35,246 nt of DNA, from the NCBI GenBank assembly GCA_964477455.1, contig CAYZHG010000106.1, positions 1 through 35,246 on the forward strand, written 5' to 3'. The stretch is from an uncultured Gammaproteobacteria bacterium (GTDB taxonomy: Bacteria; Patescibacteriota; Patescibacteriia; Magasanikbacterales; GWA2-37-8). The notes beneath the pieces were generated by a model, which worked only from the letters and a program-made list of their open reading frames with translations, had not been told where the DNA came from and ran no database searches. Position numbers and translations under genes: made by a program. This document shows positions 5,909 through 17,993 of the stretch, in pieces (position 1 is the stretch's first letter; each line of letters begins with the position of its first letter).

Positions 5909-5983
5909 GGCCTCATCGTCTAATGGTTAGGACATTGCCCTTTCACGGCGAAAATACGGGTTCGATCCCCGTTGGGGCTACCA
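5909..5983 (+). tRNA. tRNA-Glu (anticodon UUC), CCA encoded
   Basis: GGCCTCA TC GTC TAATGGTTAG GAC A TTGCC CTTTCAC GGCGA AAAT ACGGG TTCGATC CCCGT TGGGGCT A CCA. It has the same layout as E. coli tRNA-Glu, including the 3-bp D stem. The acceptor stem has two G-U pairs, one of them at 1-72. Confidence 0.9.
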
Positions 5984-5989
5984 TTCGAG

Positions 5990-6021
5990 AACTTCACTAA
6001 ATTTAGTGAAGTTTTTGTTTT
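5990..6021 (+). terminator. intrinsic terminator after tRNA-Glu
   Basis: AACTTCACTAA-at-TTAGTGAAGTT stem followed by TTTGTTTT. Confidence 0.7.
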
Positions 6022-6155
6022 ATTAAAGATAAATTATTGGGTTCGATCAAATCTTTTACACAATCTACTAAGACAAAGTTTTTTAGCAGTTGCATGTGTT
6101 AAATAACTTTAGAAACTATTTTTTGTCTTATCCACACTTGCAAAAGTTTAAGCCC

Positions 6156-6183
6156 TTGACAAATTGGATAATAGTGGTAAAAT
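6156..6183 (+). promoter_or_regulatory. sigma70-type promoter (extended -10) of the 1128-aa gene
   Basis: TTGACA (6156-6161), a 16-nt spacer, then TGgTAAAAT (6175-6183). The ATG lies 30 nt downstream. Confidence 0.55.
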
Positions 6184-6204
6184 ATTACCAGTAAATAATT
6201 ACCA
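6175..6204 (+). promoter_or_regulatory. candidate operator: inverted repeat TGGTAA-aata-TTACCA plus a third TTACCA half-site
   Basis: TGGTAA at 6175-6180 and TTACCA at 6185-6190 overlap the -10. A further TTACCA lies at 6199-6204. The downstream protein begins with an XRE-type HTH. Confidence 0.35.
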
Positions 6205-6212
6205 TATTTCAT

Positions 6213-9200
6213 ATGTCTATACTTGGGCTACGAATAGCTGAATTCCGTAAAAAAATGTCTTTCACACAGCAAAAGCTCTCAGAGCTGGCGGGGGTGGATT
6301 ACAACACTCTACGAAAAATCGAAACGGGAATGACTAAGAATCCGGGCCAAGAAATAATTGTAAAAATAGCATCTGCTTTAAGCATTCCGATAACTACGCT
6401 CATTGAAGAACCTAAGCCAACCACCTTCGGCGAAGGCATATTGCCCTTTCTACAGTTATCTCCCGACCGATTTGAAAGTCTTGTTCTAAAGATACTAAGC
6501 GAAGATAGTAATTACCGAAATGTTGAGCCATATGGAGGCATGGGCGATAAAAAGAGAGATGTTTTGGCAAAGATGGTGGTCGATGGTAAGATTTCAGACA
6601 AATCTACCTTATTTCAGGCTAAGAGGCATAAAACAACCTCGTCAACAACCCTAAACGGTGAACTCGATAAAATTAAAATTCATTTTTTTGACACCGCAGA
6701 ACCTGCTACTCCCATCGAGGGAATTGTGTTTTGCTTGGCTGATGTGCCCTCGCCCATAATTAAAGATCGTGTTAAAGAATGTGCGAGGGCATTGGGTTTA
6801 CCCGAACCTATTTTTTGGGACGCTCGCCTACTTGATGTTAAATGCCATGCGAGCAAAAGCATAATGAACGAGTACTTTCGTGGACACCTACACGAAATCA
6901 AAGAGGGAATCGAGAATATTTCTTCACAACTCGAAACCAATTTGTCTGGTATAAAATCAGATGTTAAAAAAAGCATAGAAATGTCCCAATCCGCGATAGC
7001 TGATGTGAAAGAAGCTATTACATCATTTAGCTCAGCTGACGACGCCGAAATGCAAAGAGCTCGACGTTTAATCGGCGAGGGTAAATATACCGAAGCCAAG
7101 GAAATTCTTTTAACGTTAAAAGAGAAAGTAGAAAAATCTAACGATAGTAATCGGCTTAAAAAACTTTACAATAATTTAGGACTTTGCTTTGCAAAAAGTG
7201 GAGATGATTCTTATATTATAAAAGGAATTGAGCTTCTTGAAAAAGCTTTAGATATTGACAATACATTTTCTGCCCCAAAAAGGAACCTGATATCGGTGAT
7301 AACCGATAACGGTTTATCTGAAAAATATAAACAAGCTGTCTATTTGGGCAAACAGCTCTACGAAAGTGAGCCATATAATTCTGACTTTCTGTCCTCCTAT
7401 ATTTTTGCACTGAATGCCTCTGGTAACAGAAAAGACGCTCGCGCAATCTTAGAATCAATAAGTGATATCGAGAAAAGAGTATCCGAAAACGAAGGTCTTT
7501 GCGTTGCTGCGATAATTGTTTATTTTGGTGAAGATGAATTTATGCAAAAAGCAGGGGCTCTGGTCGAAATTGGGTTAAAGAGCTTCCCAGATTCTCCCCC
7601 TATGAATCGTTTTAAAGGCAGTTTTTTGATGTATGAAGCAGAGAAAAAAGGTTACGGGTATCTCGGAGACGATCCCTTACCGATTTTTAAGGATTTAGAT
7701 ATGGTTTCAAAAGCTGTAGAACACTTTGAAAGATCTCTATCTCTTATGGAAAATGGGCCATGGCCAGAATTTGCTAAAAATCAAGTCAGGTTCTTCATCT
7801 ATAACACCCGCACTCTTTTGCACGAGGGAAGAAGAGAACAGCTTGGAGATCTCTTAGAACAATCACGAGAGATCGAACCTGAACTTCTTTCGGACGATGA
7901 AAAAAGGAATAAGCTTCTCGCTGATGTATCACTAGAGTTACATCAAAAAAACTCTCGAAGAGCTTACGAATTGGCGACTGAGTTTATTAAAAAGTACAAC
8001 TGTAGTTATGAAAGCGTAAAAAAAATTGCTAGAAATTTTCTTCAATACGGCGCTGTTGAGCAAGCCATAAAATTTCTGACATCTATTACCGAGGAAGCCA
8101 AAGAAGCTGAAGACTTTGAGTGCTGGGCGTTACTGAGTCAATGCTACCTCCTTATCGGCGACAAAAATTCTGCACTGAGAGTGATGAATGAGTCAAAAAC
8201 ATTTTTTGCCAGTAAAAATCCCGAGACATTTAATACTATTCTATCACATTACGGAGCCGTCGCAGCTCGTTACAAGGACAATAGCGAATCAAGTCGTCTT
8301 CTCGATAACATCTGGGAATTACAAAAAAATCTTCCTAATGAAACCATCCTAAAACCAATCAAGGCCATTGAAGAAGATGGTAGTCTTTCCCCCGAGATAA
8401 AGAATATATTAGAAAATGCTAAGGAAGATTTTGAATCTAAACGCGATTTGCTGGCAACAAATCCTGTTCCTGTCTATTTTTTGATGGTAGATAAGATGTT
8501 TGGCAGATCATTTCCAGAAGTTTTGGAACTTCCAAGAGAAAGCTTTGATTTCAGTTTTGTGCTACCGTACAATCAGCTAGACAATGACTTTGCTAAAAAG
8601 CAAAAATTGAACTTCGATAATGGTACTACTTTCGTCTTGGATTATAGTGCGCTTTTAAATTTAGCCCGAAGTAAGCAACTTGGGCTGTTTGCTGCTCTTG
8701 GGAAAAAAGTCGTCGCCTCAGAGCATCTTCTCTGGACCGTTCAAAGAGATCTTATTATTTTAGAAGACTCTTCATTAAGAGAAGCGTGGAATTTTTTACG
8801 AAGTGATTTAATAGAGTTATTCCCTCATAGGGAACAACTAGTTGGGATGCCCGAAAAAATGCGAACATTCTTTGAAACTGAAATGAAATGCCAGTGGTTA
8901 ACGCAAGAGATTGACTACTGCATTAAAAATGATGCGGTCTTAATCACTGACGATCTTAGATTGTGGCATTATATGTACTCTACAGAAGTTAAATCGAAAG
9001 CCGTTAACAGCTTTATCTTCTTCCAAGAAGGATTATCGAGAGGAGCGCTGGACGTTGTACAATACAGCCTGGTTATCGCTGAACTCGCCGATCTGTTTTA
9101 TCACTTTCTACCCTTTAATGGGGAGAATTTCCTACACATTATTCTCGAAGATGATCGCAAGATAGAACAGGGACAATTAGCATCACTAACTTTTAAATAT

Positions 9201-9599
9201 TCTGATTATGAGTTTAAAATTTCCAGACGAGCCTACCACCTACTAAACCAAGTTAAACTTCCAGGAGCAAATACAGATAGTTTTCTTCAAGTTTGCTTGG
9301 AATTCATTTCACGATTAGCGAAGCTTAGTGTTCTAGAAAAAGAAAAGATATCCTGGGTGATGTTTCTTACTAATTTTTTCTCAAATTTTATTCCACAAGA
9401 AAGCCTTGTTCCGGGAGACGAAGTGCTTGCAAAATATATAGATTTCATTGCAAAAGGGTGGGGTTTATTGCTTAGACACTTACCAAAGGATTCGAGAGAA
9501 GATATAGAAAAGGCAACAGCAGACATAAAAAACGAACATATTCAAAGAGCTATCCGCCACGCAATAAAAGTACAGCTAGAAAGAGAGCAGCAGCGGTAA
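6213..9599 (+). CDS. large multidomain protein: XRE-HTH + Mrr-like PD-(D/E)xK nuclease + coiled coil + TPR-like array + PIN-like domain + helical tail
   Basis: 1128 aa. HTH: FTQQKLSELAGVDYNTLRKIETG. Mrr_cat-like: FESLVLKIL, GGMGDKKRDVLAK, LFQAKRH. TPR-like: RRLIGEGKYTEAKEILLTL, LYNNLGLCFAKSG..IELLEKALDID. PIN-like: FVLDYSALLNL, ASEHLL, EIDYCIKNDAVLITDD. No GxxxxGK[ST] motif is present. Confidence 0.85.
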   Translation: MSILGLRIAEFRKKMSFTQQKLSELAGVDYNTLRKIETGMTKNPGQEIIVKIASALSIPITTLIEEPKPTTFGEGILPFLQLSPDRFESLVLKILSEDSNYRNVEPYGGMGDKKRDVLAKMVVDGKISDKSTLFQAKRHKTTSSTTLNGELDKIKIHFFDTAEPATPIEGIVFCLADVPSPIIKDRVKECARALGLPEPIFWDARLLDVKCHASKSIMNEYFRGHLHEIKEGIENISSQLETNLSGIKSDVKKSIEMSQSAIADVKEAITSFSSADDAEMQRARRLIGEGKYTEAKEILLTLKEKVEKSNDSNRLKKLYNNLGLCFAKSGDDSYIIKGIELLEKALDIDNTFSAPKRNLISVITDNGLSEKYKQAVYLGKQLYESEPYNSDFLSSYIFALNASGNRKDARAILESISDIEKRVSENEGLCVAAIIVYFGEDEFMQKAGALVEIGLKSFPDSPPMNRFKGSFLMYEAEKKGYGYLGDDPLPIFKDLDMVSKAVEHFERSLSLMENGPWPEFAKNQVRFFIYNTRTLLHEGRREQLGDLLEQSREIEPELLSDDEKRNKLLADVSLELHQKNSRRAYELATEFIKKYNCSYESVKKIARNFLQYGAVEQAIKFLTSITEEAKEAEDFECWALLSQCYLLIGDKNSALRVMNESKTFFASKNPETFNTILSHYGAVAARYKDNSESSRLLDNIWELQKNLPNETILKPIKAIEEDGSLSPEIKNILENAKEDFESKRDLLATNPVPVYFLMVDKMFGRSFPEVLELPRESFDFSFVLPYNQLDNDFAKKQKLNFDNGTTFVLDYSALLNLARSKQLGLFAALGKKVVASEHLLWTVQRDLIILEDSSLREAWNFLRSDLIELFPHREQLVGMPEKMRTFFETEMKCQWLTQEIDYCIKNDAVLITDDLRLWHYMYSTEVKSKAVNSFIFFQEGLSRGALDVVQYSLVIAELADLFYHFLPFNGENFLHIILEDDRKIEQGQLASLTFKYSDYEFKISRRAYHLLNQVKLPGANTDSFLQVCLEFISRLAKLSVLEKEKISWVMFLTNFFSNFIPQESLVPGDEVLAKYIDFIAKGWGLLLRHLPKDSREDIEKATADIKNEHIQRAIRHAIKVQLEREQQR

Positions 9600-9761: not shown

Positions 9762-9789
9762 AAAAACCGCTAAACTTAGCGGTTTTTTT
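9762..9789. terminator. bidirectional intrinsic terminator between convergent genes
   Basis: AAAAACCGCTA-aact-TAGCGGTTTTTTT. Confidence 0.72.
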
Positions 9790-9810
9790 GTTTAAATATA
9801 TCCGTAAAAT

Positions 9811-10665
9811 TTATTTTTGATTATTTATTACCGCATAAAATCTTTTCATATCATTGGTCACCATAAAGCTGTGGAGAGTATATAAATCATCTTTAGTGTG
9901 CGTTGTTCTTTCAAAGCCGATACGCGCAGAAGTATATCCAGCTTCCTTTATTTCGGATATAGTGATTGGTTTGTGTAGGCCAAATGGATAGGCAAAAGCC
10001 GTTATTGTTTTACCGATTTGTTCTTCTATAATTTTTTTACTTTCCACAATTTCTATTTTAAGTTTGGTGGTGTCAGTAATTTTCCATAGATATGGATGTG
10101 ATTTACTATGTCCACCAATTTCCATATTAAATTTTGACAGTTCTCGTACTTGCTCCCATGTGAAAAATTTTGGACGACCGATTGCATTGGTATAAATAAA
10201 GAAAGTGGCGGTCATACCTTCTTTATTTAAAATTGGAACAGCATTAGTGAATTGAGTCTCTAAACCATCATCCAAACTTATTATCACCGGTTTAGTCGGT
10301 AGAGATTTTCCGTCAAAATAATTTGTTAAATCTTCGAAACTAATTGTAGTGTATCCCTGGGCTTTTAAATATTTCAATTGTTTTTCAAAGTTATTTGGGT
10401 GAACATCGTATATTTTGTTCGCATTAGGTTCGCCGACATATGATGGTCGAATGCTGTGATAAACTAAAATTGGCACACGTATTGGGGGAATCAATTTCGA
10501 TGGTGTCGATGTGACTTTTGTGTTTAATGTATCAATTTTCGCTGGGATTGATAATTGATTTTCGAATTTAATGCGTGCATTTTTTTTATTGGATACGAAA
10601 AATACACCAATTGAAATGATTAAAAATATGACTGTTAAAAAAATAATTTTAAGTTTTAACTTCAT
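9811..10665 (-). CDS. polysaccharide deacetylase (NodB homology domain), membrane anchored
   Basis: Contains ILVYHSI, ISLDDGLETQ, GGHSKSHP and an N-terminal TM helix. I prefer the start at MKLKLKIIFL (10665); an alternative upstream ATG lies at 10704. Confidence 0.85.
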   Translation of the reverse strand: MKLKLKIIFLTVIFLIISIGVFFVSNKKNARIKFENQLSIPAKIDTLNTKVTSTPSKLIPPIRVPILVYHSIRPSYVGEPNANKIYDVHPNNFEKQLKYLKAQGYTTISFEDLTNYFDGKSLPTKPVIISLDDGLETQFTNAVPILNKEGMTATFFIYTNAIGRPKFFTWEQVRELSKFNMEIGGHSKSHPYLWKITDTTKLKIEIVESKKIIEEQIGKTITAFAYPFGLHKPITISEIKEAGYTSARIGFERTTHTKDDLYTLHSFMVTNDMKRFYAVINNQK

Positions 10666-10770
10666 ATCTTTTATTATAGCATAAATAGTTTTTAAACATA
10701 ACATTTATAATAAATAAAATTTGTGGTACTATATAATAGCTAATATTGATTGATAAATTAATCAAATCAT

Positions 10771-13750: not shown

Positions 13751-14776
13751 ATGAAAGTATCCAATAAGATCTCAACGATTGCTTTGGCAGTTGCGCTTAC
13801 ATTTAGTCTATCTGGAGCAGTTGAGGTAAATGCTGCTACAGTCGTAAATCTTGGTTCAGCAGACAGTTTTGCAGTTTTGGCAGCTTCCACAATCACCAAT
13901 ACTGGTGCAAGTACTATTAATGGTAATTTGGGATTAAGTCCTGGAACTTCTGTTACTGGTTTTCCTCCTGGGATTATGAATGGCGTTCAAAATATTGCAA
14001 ATGCGAATGCAATTAGCGCTCAAACAGATTTAATAGCAGCGTATGGTTCTGCTGGACAAACTCCAGCTTCAACTGTGTCCGCTGAGCTTGGCGGAACAGT
14101 TAAAAATGCTGGCGTTTATGTATCGAACGATGGTTCGTTTGGTATTACCGGAACATTGACTTTGGATGCTCAAGGAGATCCAAATGCTATATTTATTTTT
14201 AAATCCGCCACAACACTGACAACTGCTGGATTAAGTGTTGTAAACCTTTTAAATGGTGCACAAGCTTGTAATGTTTTTTGGCAAGTAGGAAGTTCTGCTA
14301 CACTTGGTATTAATTCAAATTTCAAAGGTAATATTTTGGCTTTAACTTCAGCTACACTTACAACCGGTGCCACCGTTGACGGTCGTGTATTAGTTCGTAA
14401 TGGTGCAGTTACATTGGATTCAAATACTATTACCAAGGCAACTTGCATGGTAACTCCAACTCCAGTACCTGCAACTCCACCAGCTCCAACTTCAACTCCT
14501 ACTCCAACTTCTTCACCAACCCCTACACCTTTAACCGTTTCTGTCCCAACAACTACGCCAACACCAGTTCCAACTATTATTTCTACTCCAGTTGTAACTG
14601 TTGAAACTGCTCCAATCGTAGCATCTGAAACAGTAGTTGTGCCTACTCCAAAAATGCCAGCCTCGGGCATCGCTCCTGCTGAGACAATTTCTCCATGGAA
14701 TATTGTAGCGCTAGTTAGTCTTTTTGTAACTTTGGCTTCATATTTCGTTGCACGCAGAAAAACAAACAATATATAA
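13751..14776 (+). CDS. secreted DUF3494 (ice-binding-like) surface protein with Thr/Pro-rich stalk and C-terminal sorting-signal-like tail
   Basis: Signal peptide ending in VNA-AT. LGSADSFAVLAASTITNTGASTINGNLGLSPGTSVTGFPPG is the typical start of a DUF3494 domain. A TP-rich linker covers aa 235-300. The tail is PKMPASG, then a hydrophobic helix, then RRKTNNI. Confidence 0.8.
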   Translation: MKVSNKISTIALAVALTFSLSGAVEVNAATVVNLGSADSFAVLAASTITNTGASTINGNLGLSPGTSVTGFPPGIMNGVQNIANANAISAQTDLIAAYGSAGQTPASTVSAELGGTVKNAGVYVSNDGSFGITGTLTLDAQGDPNAIFIFKSATTLTTAGLSVVNLLNGAQACNVFWQVGSSATLGINSNFKGNILALTSATLTTGATVDGRVLVRNGAVTLDSNTITKATCMVTPTPVPATPPAPTSTPTPTSSPTPTPLTVSVPTTTPTPVPTIISTPVVTVETAPIVASETVVVPTPKMPASGIAPAETISPWNIVALVSLFVTLASYFVARRKTNNI

Positions 14777-14799
14777 TAGAAATTTTCAAACCATTTGAT

Positions 14800-14829
14800 A
14801 AGAGCCGGACAAGATTTTGTCTGGCTCTT
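14800..14829 (+). terminator. strong hairpin between surface-protein gene and sortase gene (attenuator or partial terminator; no clear T-run)
   Basis: AAGAGCCGGACAA-gatt-TTGTCTGGCTCTT: a 13-bp stem with one G-U pair. Confidence 0.4.
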
Positions 14830-14850
14830 GCATTTGATAGGTATAAAATT

Positions 14851-15504
14851 ATGCAATATAAAATATTAACAACTTTTTCTAAGCGAACATTGTTGATAAT
14901 TATTATTGTGGAATTTATTATTTCTTCAGTGTCTGTTTTCTATCTTGTTTTGAGAAATTTCAATCCATCAACATCACTGGTAGCTAGTAGTCAAACACAC
15001 AACCATTCCTTAGCTTTAAATAATAATATAACAATTAGCAATAGTGACATTAAGCCTAGTTTTGGATTACCATTACGTCTAAAAATACCAATTATTGGTG
15101 TAGATTCAGCGGTAGAGTATGTTGGTCTTACTGTTAATGGAGCAATGGATACACCAAAAAACCAAGCAGATGTTGCCTGGTATCAATTGGGTAAACGTCC
15201 CGGAGAAAATGGCCGTGCGGTAATTGCTGGGCATTATGGATGGAAAGGAAAAAAAGAATCAGCATTTGATAATTTGTACAAATTACGAACTGGCGACAAA
15301 ATATATGTTGAAGATGATGAAGGATATACAATTATTTTTGTAGTAAGTGGAAATAGAAGGTATAATAAAGATGTTGTTGCCTCTGAGGTATTTACATCTA
15401 CGGATGGAAAAGCTTACCTTAGTTTGATTACCTGTGAGGGAGAATGGGATAAAGTTTCTAAGAGTTATCCAAGTAGGTTGGTAGTCTTTGCAGAAAAAGA
15501 ATAA
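14851..15504 (+). CDS. sortase family transpeptidase (membrane anchored)
   Basis: 217 aa with an N-terminal TM helix. Catalytic pattern: VIAGHYG (His), LSLITCEG (Cys), SRLVVFA (Arg). Confidence 0.85.
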   Translation: MQYKILTTFSKRTLLIIIIVEFIISSVSVFYLVLRNFNPSTSLVASSQTHNHSLALNNNITISNSDIKPSFGLPLRLKIPIIGVDSAVEYVGLTVNGAMDTPKNQADVAWYQLGKRPGENGRAVIAGHYGWKGKKESAFDNLYKLRTGDKIYVEDDEGYTIIFVVSGNRRYNKDVVASEVFTSTDGKAYLSLITCEGEWDKVSKSYPSRLVVFAEKE

Positions 15505-15542
15505 TAATTTTTCAATACTGTTTGATTAATAAATATTATTAA

Positions 15543-17993
15543 ATGAAAATATTTACCAAGGTAATAATATTTGTTTCAATATCAACATTGGCTATTGTTG
15601 TTGGTTTGTTTTTTGCAAGTCCAACCAAAGCTTTTCCTCCAACACCTTTAACAGTAAATCTTGGTCTTGCTGATAGTTTTGCTATCTTGGCTGGTTCGGC
15701 AGTTACCAACGTTCCTACATCCATAATTACTGGAAATCTTGGTTTGAGTCCAGCGGCTGGTAGTTTTTATGATGGTGGTGTAACACAAGCGCAGGTTTCT
15801 GGGACGATTTATACAACTAATGCGGCAGGTCCAGCAGGATATGTAATGGATCCAACTTTATTGACTGCTGCCAAGCAAGATATAACCGATGCGATTACCG
15901 ATGCTTCTGGACGAACACCATACACTGTTCTTGCCACTCCTGAACTTGGGGGTGCTACTACCACCGCTGGCCTATATACGTATGGTACTTTGCAGGTTAC
16001 CGGTGTCTTAACATTGGATGGACAAGGTGATCCTGATGCAGTTTTTATTTTTAAAGCCGATACTACTTTAACAACAGCGGCAAGTAGTGAAGTGCGGTTG
16101 GTTAATGGTGCCAATGCCTGTAATGTTTTTTGGGTTGTAGGCACATCAAATGGAACGCTTGGAACAAATTCGATTTTCAAGGGAACAATTTTAGCAGATC
16201 AATCAATTTCACTTTTGACTGGAGCTAATGTGGTAGGAAGATTGTTGGCATTTACTGGCGGTGTCACTTTGCAAGGAAATACTATCACCAAACCAACTTG
16301 TTCGCTTGCCGCCCCAACTCTACAACTTTTAAAAACTGTGACAAATGATAATGGTGGTACAGCGACCAATACAGCTTGGACCCTTACCGCTACGGGTGCT
16401 AGCGGTTCACCTACAAATTTATCTGGTACTACCACCGTTAGTAGTGGTGTATCATTTCAAGCTGACACCTACACATTAGCCGAAAATGGTGGACCTACTG
16501 GTTATGCTTCTAGTACCTATAGTTGTGTTAAAAATGGTGTAACAACTGTTAGTAATACCATAACTTTAGTTGCTGGCGATGTTGCAGTTTGTACTATAAA
16601 TAATAATGACATAGCGCCACAACTTACAATCACTAAAACTGTCAATAATACTCATGGCGGTATAAAAACCACTTCTAGTTTTTCTTACTATATAGACGGC
16701 GTGACTACAACTTTAGGAGTGGCAAGTACAACTTCTATTGGTGTTCATACCGTATCTGAATCTGCTGATTCTGGCTATTTGGCTACTTATGGTGGTGATT
16801 GTTCTTCGACTGGTACAACAACACTTTCAATAGGTGAATCTAAAACTTGTACAATTACCAATAATGACATTGCGCCTTTACTCACTGTGACAAAAGTTGT
16901 TGTAAATGATAGTGGTCATGGAAATAAAATAATTTCTGACTTTTCATTATTTATTGATGGCTTCAGTGTAGTTTCAAGTATTGCTAGTACAACTTCCGTT
17001 GGACTTCATACTGTATCGGAAACCGCTGATTCTGGTTATACTTCGGTGATTGGTGGTGATTGTAATGCGGATGGCACAATTACATTGGAAGTGGGAGCGG
17101 TAAAAATTTGTACTATCACAAATAATGATATTATATTAACATCGAGTGGTGCAAGTGGTGGAAGTGGGAGTAATTATAATTTAATACCGGTGCCGCCACT
17201 TATTGATGTTGTAAAAGTGCCGAGTCCGCTCGCTTTGCCAGGTGGTCCTGGTTTGGTCACCTATACCTACACTTTGCGGAATGTTGGTACTGTTTCAGTC
17301 AACAATATTAAATTACTCGATGATTCGTGTAGTTCATTGTATCTTATTTCTGGAGATGTAAATGGAAATTCAAAACTCGAAAAAACAGAAATATGGAAAT
17401 ACCGTTGTTCAGTTAAACTTACAAAAACTCATACCAACATTGTTGTTGCAACCGGTTGGGCAAATGGGATTAGTGCCACAGATATTGCAAATGCAACTGT
17501 TGTAGTTGGTCTGTCAGTGGTACCACCGCTGATTCATGTTACAAAAATTCCTAGTCCGCTTGCTTTGCTTGCTGAAGGTGGTTATGTTACATATACCGAA
17601 ACAATTACAAATCCTGGTAAAGTCACATTGAATAATGTTCGCCTTACTGATGATAAATGTAAACCAGTAAAATATATTTCTGGTGATTTAAATAATAACA
17701 ATAAATTGGAAACTTCTGAGACATGGGTTTACACATGTAAATCAAATCTTACAAAAACTACTACTAATACGGCTGTTGCTACCGGTGAGGCCAATGGTTT
17801 GGTAGCTAGAGATTTTGCAATAGCGACAGTCGTAGTGGACCCAATTGGTGTTACGGTTTTATCTTCCGCTATAGTTGTGCCAAAATTACCAAATACAGGT
17901 TCGGATCCTCTAGAGAATACATTAATTTGGTCGGTTACCTTAGTTGGAATACTTTCTTCTCTAACCGCCGTCTATATATTTTTGAAAAAATAA
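15543..17993 (+). CDS. large LPXTG-anchored surface protein: DUF3494 (ice-binding-like) head plus five repeated Ig-like/beta-sandwich modules
   Basis: 816 aa with a signal peptide. LGLADSFAILAGSAVTNVPTSIITGNLGLSPAAG marks the DUF3494 head. There are three modules ending in C-TI(T/N)NNDI and two modules with the VTYTYT..N.G...L.N..L.DD.C pattern. The C-terminus is PKLPNTGS, then a TM helix, then KK. Confidence 0.87.
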   Translation: MKIFTKVIIFVSISTLAIVVGLFFASPTKAFPPTPLTVNLGLADSFAILAGSAVTNVPTSIITGNLGLSPAAGSFYDGGVTQAQVSGTIYTTNAAGPAGYVMDPTLLTAAKQDITDAITDASGRTPYTVLATPELGGATTTAGLYTYGTLQVTGVLTLDGQGDPDAVFIFKADTTLTTAASSEVRLVNGANACNVFWVVGTSNGTLGTNSIFKGTILADQSISLLTGANVVGRLLAFTGGVTLQGNTITKPTCSLAAPTLQLLKTVTNDNGGTATNTAWTLTATGASGSPTNLSGTTTVSSGVSFQADTYTLAENGGPTGYASSTYSCVKNGVTTVSNTITLVAGDVAVCTINNNDIAPQLTITKTVNNTHGGIKTTSSFSYYIDGVTTTLGVASTTSIGVHTVSESADSGYLATYGGDCSSTGTTTLSIGESKTCTITNNDIAPLLTVTKVVVNDSGHGNKIISDFSLFIDGFSVVSSIASTTSVGLHTVSETADSGYTSVIGGDCNADGTITLEVGAVKICTITNNDIILTSSGASGGSGSNYNLIPVPPLIDVVKVPSPLALPGGPGLVTYTYTLRNVGTVSVNNIKLLDDSCSSLYLISGDVNGNSKLEKTEIWKYRCSVKLTKTHTNIVVATGWANGISATDIANATVVVGLSVVPPLIHVTKIPSPLALLAEGGYVTYTETITNPGKVTLNNVRLTDDKCKPVKYISGDLNNNNKLETSETWVYTCKSNLTKTTTNTAVATGEANGLVARDFAIATVVVDPIGVTVLSSAIVVPKLPNTGSDPLENTLIWSVTLVGILSSLTAVYIFLKK
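16311..17135 (+). repeat. three tandem intragenic domain repeats (about 88-100 codons each)
   Basis: aa 257-357, 358-445 and 446-531. Each begins (I)AP.LT.TK.V and ends with a Cys followed by TI(T/N)NNDI. Confidence 0.7.
17187..17837 (+). repeat. two tandem intragenic domain repeats (about 107 codons each)
   Basis: aa 549-655 and 659-765. Both start VPPLI.V.K.PSPLAL and contain SGD.N.N.KLE..E.W.Y.C...LTKT.TN..VATG.ANG. Confidence 0.7.

Follow-up and report, generated by a model that had tools for sequence, protein, structure and literature searches.

A candidate single-gene conflict protein of TGP-related type with an HTH-nuclease head on a TPR-PIN-tail core

The gene, its surroundings and its domain architecture

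The DNA analyzed in this study (the window) is a stretch of 35,246 nucleotides (nt), contig CAYZHG010000106.1 of the assembly GCA_964477455.1 of an uncultured Gammaproteobacteria bacterium. The subject is one open reading frame (ORF) at 6213-9599 on the plus strand (ATG start, stop codon at 9597-9599), whose product of 1128 amino acids (aa) is probably a single-gene conflict or defense protein related to the TGP family described below. The upstream neighbors of the ORF are the genes for ParA, ParB and TsaD and, as context, a tRNA-Glu(UUC) gene (5909..5983, plus strand; found by ARAGORN and, with 61.1 bits, by Rfam), the end of which is separated from the ATG by a gap of 229 nt. A sigma-70-type promoter-like site is located at 6156..6183 on the plus strand, with the -35 hexamer TTGACA at 6156-6161 and the extended -10 element TGgTAAAAT at 6175-6183; the pair, TTGACA-16-TAAAAT with a TG upstream, matches the consensus at 11 of 12 positions. 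The next gene (9811-10704, minus strand) encodes a polysaccharide deacetylase and is convergent with the ORF, and a bidirectional intrinsic-terminator-like hairpin (9762..9787, assigned to neither strand) lies between the stop codon and this gene and is shared by the two genes. The hairpin is G+C-rich, has an 11-bp stem with four G-C pairs, an A-run upstream and a T-run downstream, and folds with a minimum free energy of -16.4 kcal/mol and a folding z-score of -3.09. Beyond the deacetylase gene are genes for a PAS-GAF histidine kinase, ice-binding-like surface proteins and a sortase. There is no co-oriented neighbor in the window, and the two intergenic gaps hold no plausible small ORF, none being longer than 44 aa. 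The original prediction had described an isolated unit 230 nt after the tRNA, with its own promoter and its own terminator, converging on the next gene amid housekeeping genes, and this description agrees with the annotation except for 1 nt in the gap. The G+C content of the gene (0.38) is the same as that of its flanks, and an Rfam scan of the window found three tRNAs and nothing else. The identical protein is present on 8 contigs, and the four places shown belong to four different metagenome assemblies.

At the N terminus, an XRE/Cro-C1-type helix-turn-helix (HTH) domain (aa 1-66, 6213..6410; this and the following domain coordinates are on the plus strand) has matches in Pfam, the PDB and PADLOC, namely HTH_3 over aa 8-62 with an E value of 6.4e-11, HTH_19, SinR in the PDB (E = 6.5e-6), and the PADLOC models HTH_VI and capH. 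In one homolog of 1161 aa (P0012), 63 additional residues precede the conserved MSEIG... start at the N terminus; an erroneous call of the start codon in the source assembly is the likeliest cause.

The HTH is followed by a predicted Mrr/Cap4-type PD-(D/E)xK nuclease (aa 67-225, 6411..6887), the assignment of which draws on Mrr_cat, LmuA, an AlphaFold2 (AF2) model and Foldseek. Its motifs are E88, G111-D112-K113-x-R115-D116 and Q135-A-K137-R138. LmuA is the best PADLOC match of the region (aa 80-157, E = 3e-7), and precomputed matches to Mrr_cat (PF04471), mostly weak or faint, are present in 7 of 13 homologs. A profile of the region gave no match to the PDB by sequence, and the comparison of folds alone worked. 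The AF2 model of aa 66-225, obtained with an 11-sequence alignment, has a predicted local distance difference test (pLDDT) score of 90.4, a predicted template modeling (pTM) score of 0.86 and an alpha-beta-beta-beta-alpha-beta topology, and its Foldseek matches in the PDB include Avs4 (8dgf_A, E = 4.5e-4), MspJI, AspBHI and Cap4, as well as Cdn1, FokI, Card1/Can2, LmuA and HamA. These matched proteins are PD-(D/E)xK nucleases, and most of them are effector or cleavage modules of defense or restriction systems. Across the family, D112, D116 and K137 are invariant (39 of 39 members), while Q135 is kept in 36 and E88 in 23 of the 39. The likeness to Avs4, Cap4 and LmuA lies in the best structural matches to aa 66-225 and in the fusion of a nuclease effector to a sensor, and the TPR-like sensor of Avs proteins parallels the tetratricopeptide repeat (TPR) array of the window protein. 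In contrast to these systems, a STAND or ABC ATPase, a Walker A motif and a SAVED/CARF nucleotide sensor are all absent from the window protein, and it has a second nuclease fold, the PIN domain. Neither a Walker A (G/AxxxxGK[ST]) nor a Walker B motif was found by regular expression, and no NTPase family of Pfam or NCBIfam was matched. The Pfam scan also gave no recognizable match to a modified-base reader (SRA or the Mrr N-terminal domain).

A variable linker (aa 226-285, 6888..7067) containing insertions and deletions is the least conserved segment of the protein, with a mean pairwise identity of 33%; the original prediction had proposed a coiled coil for about this stretch (aa 225-285). It leads into the TPR array (aa about 286-700, 7068..8312), the presumed sensor. 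TPR_19 is matched in four stretches with an E value of 2.6e-13, together with TPR_12, TPR_2 and a weak TPR-S match; the matches span aa 288-706, and MamA and PrsT-type TPR proteins are matched over aa 568-706. The mean pairwise identity of the array is 44%, compared with 53% for the catalytic domains. The conserved linker that follows (aa 701-805, 8313..8627) carries FP and, after some 20 residues, Y..NP.P.YFL; the AF2 confidence is low at aa 735-788. Bona fide TGP proteins, introduced below, have their GreA/B-C domain immediately ahead of this position.

The next segment (aa 806-945, 8628..9047) is a predicted PIN domain of the PF20698 (TGP) type, assigned by AF2, Foldseek and hhalign. No library recognized the sequence of aa 740-1128, and a profile of this C-terminal module gave no match to the PDB by sequence. 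The AF2 model of aa 735-1128 (pLDDT 78.9, pTM 0.77) has a beta-alpha-beta core, and its top Foldseek matches in the PDB are nearly all VapC/PIN proteins (3zvk, 1o4w, 1y82, 5h4g, and SMG6 2hww), with a probability of about 1.0, TM scores of 0.6-0.7 on the target length and modest E values of 0.03-0.3. The key residues are D810 after beta1, E837, D846 and E851 on the next helix, and T912-D913-D914 after beta4; in the model, D810 and T912-D913-D914 occupy canonical PIN positions. D810 is present in all 79 members compared and D914 in 77 (the other two are gaps), and E851, D/E846 and D913 are kept in 72, 70 and 63 of the 79, respectively. The domain resembles VapC in its fold and in the acidic residues at the ends of beta1 and beta4. 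On the other hand, it is embedded in an 1128-aa protein and has no separate antitoxin gene, its beta3 and beta4 are separated by a helical insertion, a long C-terminal tail comes after it, and no sequence similarity to VapC was detectable in the comparison of hidden Markov models with the PDB.

The tail (aa 946-1128, 9048..9596) is modeled by AF2 as helices and one beta-hairpin with a pLDDT of about 85-95. D947, D980 and K1045 are conserved in 67, 66 and 71 of 73 members, respectively, H1009 is conserved as well, and no Pfam or PDB sequence match was found, the detectable relatives of the tail being confined to the family. The domain order read earlier from the translation, with an XRE-type HTH, an Mrr-like nuclease, TPR-like repeats, a PIN-like domain and a helical tail but no Walker A motif that would place the protein among the STAND/Avs NTPases, is therefore recovered by profiles for the HTH and TPR segments and by predicted models for the others, the tail being helical except for its hairpin.

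Family, variable heads and relation to TGP

Homologs were collected with a word-indexed search and, among 1.84 billion cluster representatives, with the profile of the C-terminal module. The word-indexed search gave 13 clusters at 90% identity, 27-99% identical, all of them full length and about 1100 aa long. The profile gave 93 cluster representatives, 60 of which have E<1e-30; in nearly all of the 93, the module sits at the C terminus, and the proteins are 900-1200 aa long. When the family domain profiles were mapped onto 103 proteins, the TPR array, the PIN domain and the tail were constant, and the N terminus varied. The heads comprise HTH plus nuclease, nuclease alone, metallophosphoesterase and short heads of unknown kind; the HTH is absent from many members. 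One protein (P0045) carries a MerR-type HTH and a different nuclease-like domain on the full TPR-PIN-tail core, another (P0086) carries a Cap4_nuclease domain, and four (P0037, P0040, P0043 and P0065) carry transmembrane helices. The original prediction had proposed two nuclease effectors on one polypeptide. Both folds are recovered, but their equal standing is not, since the N-terminal nuclease occupies a swappable slot, whereas TPR, PIN and tail form the constant core. One relative, P0044, is a giant of 1976 aa, in which a calcineurin-like metallophosphoesterase head precedes the TPR-PIN-tail core and the C terminus adds a beta-propeller of the Ycf48/BNR kind and a nucleoside phosphorylase domain (PNP_UDP); it thus appears to carry effector-type domains at both ends.

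The TGP (TPR-GreA/B-C-PIN) conflict system was defined by Kaur, Iyer, Burroughs & Aravind, eLife 2021 (PMC8195603). Its core consists of a constant, rapidly evolving TPR region, GreA/B-C and a novel PIN domain; the N terminus is EAD10 or one of 13 effectors, including a restriction endonuclease (REase), and the genes mostly stand alone (PMC8195603). In the predicted mechanism, GreA/B-C docks on RNA polymerase, the PIN domain cuts the transcript, and the head serves as a second line of defense (PMC8195603). Pfam describes PF20698 (gathering score 27.8) as the "PIN domain associated with TPR-GreAB-C-PIN system". The C-terminal profile retrieves seven proteins that are positive for this family, P0095 (80.6 bits), P0093 (52.7), P0102 (42.4), P0087 (40.3), P0076 (38.5), P0045 (35.7) and P0086 (28.5), and P0102 also matches GreA_GreB with 29.2 bits, above the gathering score. 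When the PIN domains of the clade of the window protein were compared with the PF20698-positive ones by hhalign, the probability was 97.7% (E = 1.4e-12), with D810 and the TDD motif in register.

The HTH-REase clade to which the window protein belongs lacks GreA/B-C at the level of its sequence. Pfam gave no match to GreA_GreB for the window protein at E<=10, and when aa 560-806 were compared by hhalign with the GreA/B-C segments of P0095 and P0102, the probability was 0.3%. In a MAFFT alignment with these two proteins, their beta-rich GreA/B-C insert of about 70 aa (...GDVVEF...YTIQEV...) has no counterpart in the window protein, and the TPR-like helices pass straight into the linker common to all three. 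A GreA/B-C domain in the window protein is thus ruled out by Pfam, by alignment and by hhalign. Because the defining, mechanism-bearing domain is absent, we file the protein as a TGP-related variant and not as a strict member.

The original prediction did not recognize the architecture as a named system; in fact, it stands at the fringe of the TGP family. The source table of Kaur et al. lists about 517 rows of REase+TPR+GreAB-C+PIN, about 179 rows of TPR+PIN without GreAB-C, three rows of REase+TPR+PIN, and one HTH+REase+PIN protein, MBI5207389.1 of Ca. Firestonebacteria (PMC8195603). The window clade shares with TGP the PF20698-type PIN, the TPR array before it, the linker between the two, the variable N-terminal effector slot with REase among its heads, and the stand-alone genes. 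It differs in the lack of GreA/B-C, in the XRE HTH ahead of the REase and the conserved self-operator described below, and in the helical tail of about 180 aa, which is recognizable in the closer family and not in the distant TGP matches; its close relatives are also rare (13 clusters, and 2 of 185,579 species-representative genomes).

One TGP protein has been validated. The Bab/Agp system of E. coli ECOR25 provides abortive-infection defense against phage T5, for which Agp, a TGP protein, is required (bioRxiv 10.1101/2024.11.07.622273). GreA/B-C mutants and a PIN mutant of Agp both lose defense, and the mutant of the PIN catalytic site is also less stable (bioRxiv 10.1101/2024.11.07.622273). 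Agp resembles the window protein in its length of about 1100 aa and in its TPR region followed by a PIN of the same type (bioRxiv 10.1101/2024.11.07.622273). It differs in that its amyloid motif at the N terminus passes the signal to Bab, a separate executioner with a Bell domain, and in that it requires GreA/B-C, whereas the window protein has neither GreA/B-C nor a partner ORF and holds an Mrr/Cap4-type nuclease effector in cis. A small Bab-like partner gene was sought beside the window gene and ruled out by the absence of any ORF longer than 44 aa from both gaps. The family, its logic and the HTH+REase+PIN architecture are therefore already in the literature or its supplement, with one relative validated; what is new is a clade without GreA/B-C that has an intact PIN, a conserved tail and a self-operator.

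Operator-like palindromes and genomic contexts

Two tandem palindromes, a putative operator, lie upstream of the gene at 6176..6203 on the plus strand (6175-6204 reads TGGTAAAATATTACCAGTAAATAATTACCA). O1 (GGTAA-AATA-TTACC, 6176-6189) overlaps the -10 hexamer and the extended -10 element TGgTAAAAT, and O2 (AGTAA-ATAA-TTACC, 6190-6203) follows directly. The window contains a single copy of the pattern GGTAANNNNWTACCAGTAA, whereas 100 shuffles contained no copy, also when one mismatch was tolerated. In the 101 loci that were fetched, the pattern is restricted to sites just upstream of orthologs, which form six independent non-syntenic groups, and its center lies 29-38 nt ahead of the ATG. When the six upstream regions were aligned, a 31-nt block contained 22 invariant positions, and the preceding 70 nt were essentially unconserved; the proteins encoded behind them are 48-60% identical to the window protein. 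More distant orthologs (P0009, P0011, P0013 and P0017) have co-varied tandem palindromes of the same design, and pairs resembling TTGACA and TGGTAAAAT are present at four ortholog loci (L001, L004, L008 and L098) in the same relative position as the window promoter. A palindrome that covers the -10 hexamer and is conserved upstream of six non-syntenic orthologs implies autorepression by the HTH, which is the simplest reading of the tandem palindromes; the binding itself is predicted from the DNA pattern and the HTH_3 match, and the DNA-binding or autoregulatory role originally proposed for the N-terminal head gains direct support from the conserved palindromes. The putative self-operator of the HTH-REase clade is new and has no description in the paper of Kaur et al. 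(PMC8195603).

A further element was noted in the same region. The DnaA-box consensus TTATCCACA is present at 6128-6136 of the window, about 80 nt upstream of the start codon, and in the same relative place at two non-syntenic ortholog loci (L006:4838-4846 and L098:48-56). In the window alone, its occurrence is not beyond chance, with at least one match in 38 of 100 shuffles.

The gene moves between unrelated contexts, which are often defense islands or integrase-bearing elements. Five independent ortholog neighborhoods of at least 8 kb have zero mutual synteny (P0006 and P0007 share one neighborhood, which is counted once), and further orthologs lie on contigs of 4-6 kb with little or no flank. 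P0007 and P0006 are located between type I restriction-modification (R-M) genes and a SIR2_2 gene; beyond these are a serine recombinase, methyltransferases (MTases), DUF2779 and GmrSD_N in the case of P0007 and, on the far side of the R-M genes, an AAA_15/AAA_21 ATPase and DUF2130 in the case of P0006. P0008 adjoins an MTase/ResIII/DUF2779 cluster and LexA, P0010 lies between a tyrosine integrase with PemK and a HEPN_Apea protein, P0011 lies within an element with integrase, AlpA and AAA_25 (primase-like) genes, P0002 follows a serine recombinase, and P0017 is beside a weak terminase-like ORF. The homologs therefore sit in variable islands with R-M, SIR2, GmrSD, HEPN and integrase genes, and not in the housekeeping operons that would have spoken against the original prediction. 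A scan of 185,579 species-representative genomes with back-translated patterns, which reaches close relatives and under-samples the wider family, gave two loci in two genomes, both loci already known. One genome is annotated as gammaproteobacterial and the other, a metagenome-assembled genome, as Rickettsiales, and both organisms are uncultured. The presence of the gene in two genomes of two annotated classes makes its distribution patchy.

At the P0007 and P0006 loci (L004:13336-15050 and L008:11947-13661, respectively), only 12-14 nt separate the stop codon from the start of the SIR2_2 gene (331 aa), behind which lies an ORF of 233 aa; on the other side, the ortholog is preceded by an ORF of 115 aa. 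These genes, which are without counterpart in the window, could be accessory partners in the P0007/P0006 sub-lineage or mere neighbors in an island.

Five relatives of the window lineage (L014-L018, TsaD 75-89% identical) keep the order ParA-ParB-TsaD-tRNA-Glu, lack the gene, and have different genes beyond the tRNA. Gene order in this lineage is conserved only to just past tRNA-Glu, and the comparison shows that the gene is variable but reveals no clean insertion boundary. In the one that is the closest syntenic relative of the window, the 3' end of tRNA-Glu and the hairpin after it (window 5969-6047) are duplicated 2.9 kb apart (L014:501-579 and L014:3471-3581), and the copies bracket ORFs of 161 aa, 618 aa (with a PA14 domain) and 132 aa, which look like an island inserted at the tRNA. 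In another (L017), a serine recombinase gene ends next to tRNA-Glu. From the duplication and the recombinase it follows that the tRNA-Glu site behaves as an integration hot spot in the window lineage. The hairpins on the two sides of the window gene were also considered as insertion scars and rejected: the segments 5997-6025 and 9770-9798 are 76% alike over 29 nt, which is chance level, with a local alignment score of 25 compared with 19.2 +/- 2.3 (maximum 27) for shuffles. The hairpins after tRNA-Glu (5986-6017) and after the gene (9762-9787) have the loop motif CTAAA(T/C)TTAG in common, a likeness no better than chance.

Proposed function, alternative explanations and other features of the window

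We regard it as reasonably probable that the window protein is a single-gene conflict or defense protein of a TGP-related kind, with less certainty about the specific steps. This conclusion, which is also that of the original prediction, draws on the two predicted nuclease folds, their invariant catalytic residues, the defense and mobile contexts of the orthologs, and the absence of the gene from syntenic relatives. The XRE HTH, probably as a dimer of dimers, would bind O1 and O2 and repress its own promoter, and this autorepression would keep a potentially toxic protein at a low copy number. The fast-evolving TPR solenoid may recognize a protein or peptide derived from the invader, and binding of this ligand would cause a conformational or oligomeric change, probably oligomerization, upon which the N-terminal nuclease would cut DNA. 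By analogy with the nuclease heads of Avs4 and Cap4, the outcome could be abortive infection or destruction of phage DNA. The PIN domain, together with the tail, may cleave RNA without docking on RNA polymerase.

Several results weigh against a role of this kind. Agp, the sole validated relative, needs the GreA/B-C domain that is absent from the window protein, and the window protein alone has no PF20698 match in hmmscan. The Mrr_cat match (aa 81-142) scores 19.6 bits, below the gathering score of 21, and no PADLOC model covers the C-terminal two thirds of the protein. E837, the second canonical acid of the PIN domain, is kept in only 27 of the 79 members, for which reason the exact geometry of the PIN active site is uncertain. 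The -10 hexamer accounts for part of the conservation of the operator; the symmetric partner half-sites lie downstream of this hexamer. None of the nine neighboring window ORFs that were scanned is defense-related, no att-like duplication flanking the gene was found by local alignment against shuffles, and no copy was found among phages, plasmids and IMG/VR contigs.

The explanation nearest to the published model is that the protein acts as a canonical TGP, in which a GreA/B-C-like element docks on the beta' coiled coil of RNA polymerase, the PIN domain cuts the viral transcript as it is extruded, and suicide by way of the REase is the second line. The same type of PIN, the same logic of constant core and variable head, and the common TPR-PIN linker all fit this explanation, as does a conserved stretch, ...PIKAIEEDGSLSPEIK... 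(aa about 710-730), which sits where GreA/B-C would end and which, by eye, is faintly like SPESD..K.L.G of P0095 and P0102. The searches for GreA/B-C described above speak against it, in that neither Pfam nor hhalign detects the domain, the beta-rich insert of about 70 aa is missing, and the sequence that precedes the linker is matched by TPR models. Without GreA/B-C, docking into the secondary channel of RNA polymerase cannot apply, and we consider the canonical mechanism very unlikely here. A type IV restriction enzyme, modification-dependent like Mrr or MspJI, with the HTH and TPR regions for DNA targeting and regulation and with PIN and tail as accessory or structural parts, would account for the Mrr_cat relationship of the nuclease, for the structural matches to the modification-dependent MspJI and AspBHI, and for the location of P0006 and P0007, both of which adjoin type I R-M genes, the P0007 island also containing MTases. 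However, the nuclease can be replaced by heads that are not DNases or by transmembrane helices while TPR, PIN and tail remain constant, and it is therefore a cargo effector and not the core; conservation of the catalytic residues is no lower in the PIN than in the nuclease, and no SRA or Mrr N-terminal domain is recognizable. Such an enzyme is an unlikely explanation.

Two further explanations take the HTH as their starting point. The protein might be a selfish addiction or stabilization module of a mobile element, a single-chain analog of VapBC in which the HTH and its operator play the part of the antitoxin, the PIN or nuclease is the toxin, and any anti-phage effect is incidental. An XRE HTH and a PIN are classic antitoxin and toxin parts, the HTH has weak matches to MqsA, HipB and HigA, the tight layout of the autorepression resembles toxin-antitoxin (TA) operators, and several orthologs lie beside integrases or recombinases. 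Yet the window gene is not on a recognizable mobile element, and there is no labile, separate antitoxin; in place of the VapBC layout of an upstream antitoxin and a PIN toxin of about 130 aa, the gene is monocistronic with no ORF longer than 44 aa in the upstream gap. A fast-evolving TPR region of some 415 residues, combined with an exchangeable head, is the mark of immunity proteins that join sensor and effector and not of TA pairs, and we find this module rather improbable. The least likely explanation, with very little probability, is a transcription regulator in which an HTH-TPR unit senses a ligand or peptide in the manner of RRNPP, SARP or MalT proteins and the nuclease-like domains are dead scaffolds. 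An XRE HTH with TPR is the RRNPP layout, a weak BTAD match is present, and the operator is conserved, but both nuclease folds keep invariant catalytic residues in 39 and 79 diverse members, respectively, the operator is confined to the promoter of the gene itself (once in the window and, in the other loci, upstream of orthologs only), the HTH is missing from many members, and there is no adjacent small ORF for a pro-peptide. RRNPP proteins have the HTH directly on the TPR, a length of about 300-450 aa and an adjacent pro-peptide gene, whereas 220 aa of nuclease and linker separate the HTH from the TPR array here.

A different version of the immune role, which we consider possible but doubtful, is that the clade without GreA/B-C is a mechanistically distinct immune module and not a degenerate TGP, with PIN and tail as a switch, an oligomerization platform or an RNA sensor in place of an effector that cuts transcripts, and with feed-forward activation that the autorepressing HTH couples to expression. 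In such a circuit, the TPR would engage a cue from the invader, and the protein would leave O1/O2, for example by oligomerizing or by relocating to target DNA. If this is true, leaving the operator would both unleash the nuclease and de-repress the promoter, forming a one-protein immune circuit.

For the TGP-related conflict protein that we favor, the absence of GreA/B-C has a wider bearing. TGP proteins are among the few predicted single-gene immune sensors without an NTPase switch, and one member (Bab/Agp) has been tested. In the clade described here, the domain that underlies the published mechanism is absent, yet the TPR-PIN core is maintained and its catalytic residues are intact; hence, the mechanism is not a general one, or else the core does something different. 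The clade is a compact case as well, in which a single gene has two nuclease active sites that can be separated and a putative operator sharply delimited to 28 bp, and one construct could serve to take apart the sensing, the autoregulation and the firing of the effector. In practice the gain is modest, namely a refined annotation of a rare family that libraries of the PADLOC type do not cover.

Two other features of the window, away from the gene, were noted. An ORF of 235 aa at 2242-2949 on the minus strand has a LAGLIDADG_3 homing-endonuclease match (precomputed by Pfam on the equivalent contig L093) and, as listed, overlaps the tRNA-Leu(CAA) gene at 2820-2904 on the same strand; either its true start is downstream of the tRNA, or an endonuclease gene lies directly beside the tRNA. 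At 13751-17993 on the plus strand, the sortase gene is flanked by two genes for ice-binding-like (PF11999) surface proteins, the second of which (816 aa) also has SpaA-type prealbumin-fold and DUF7507 domains, and this region looks like a cluster of sortase-anchored surface proteins.

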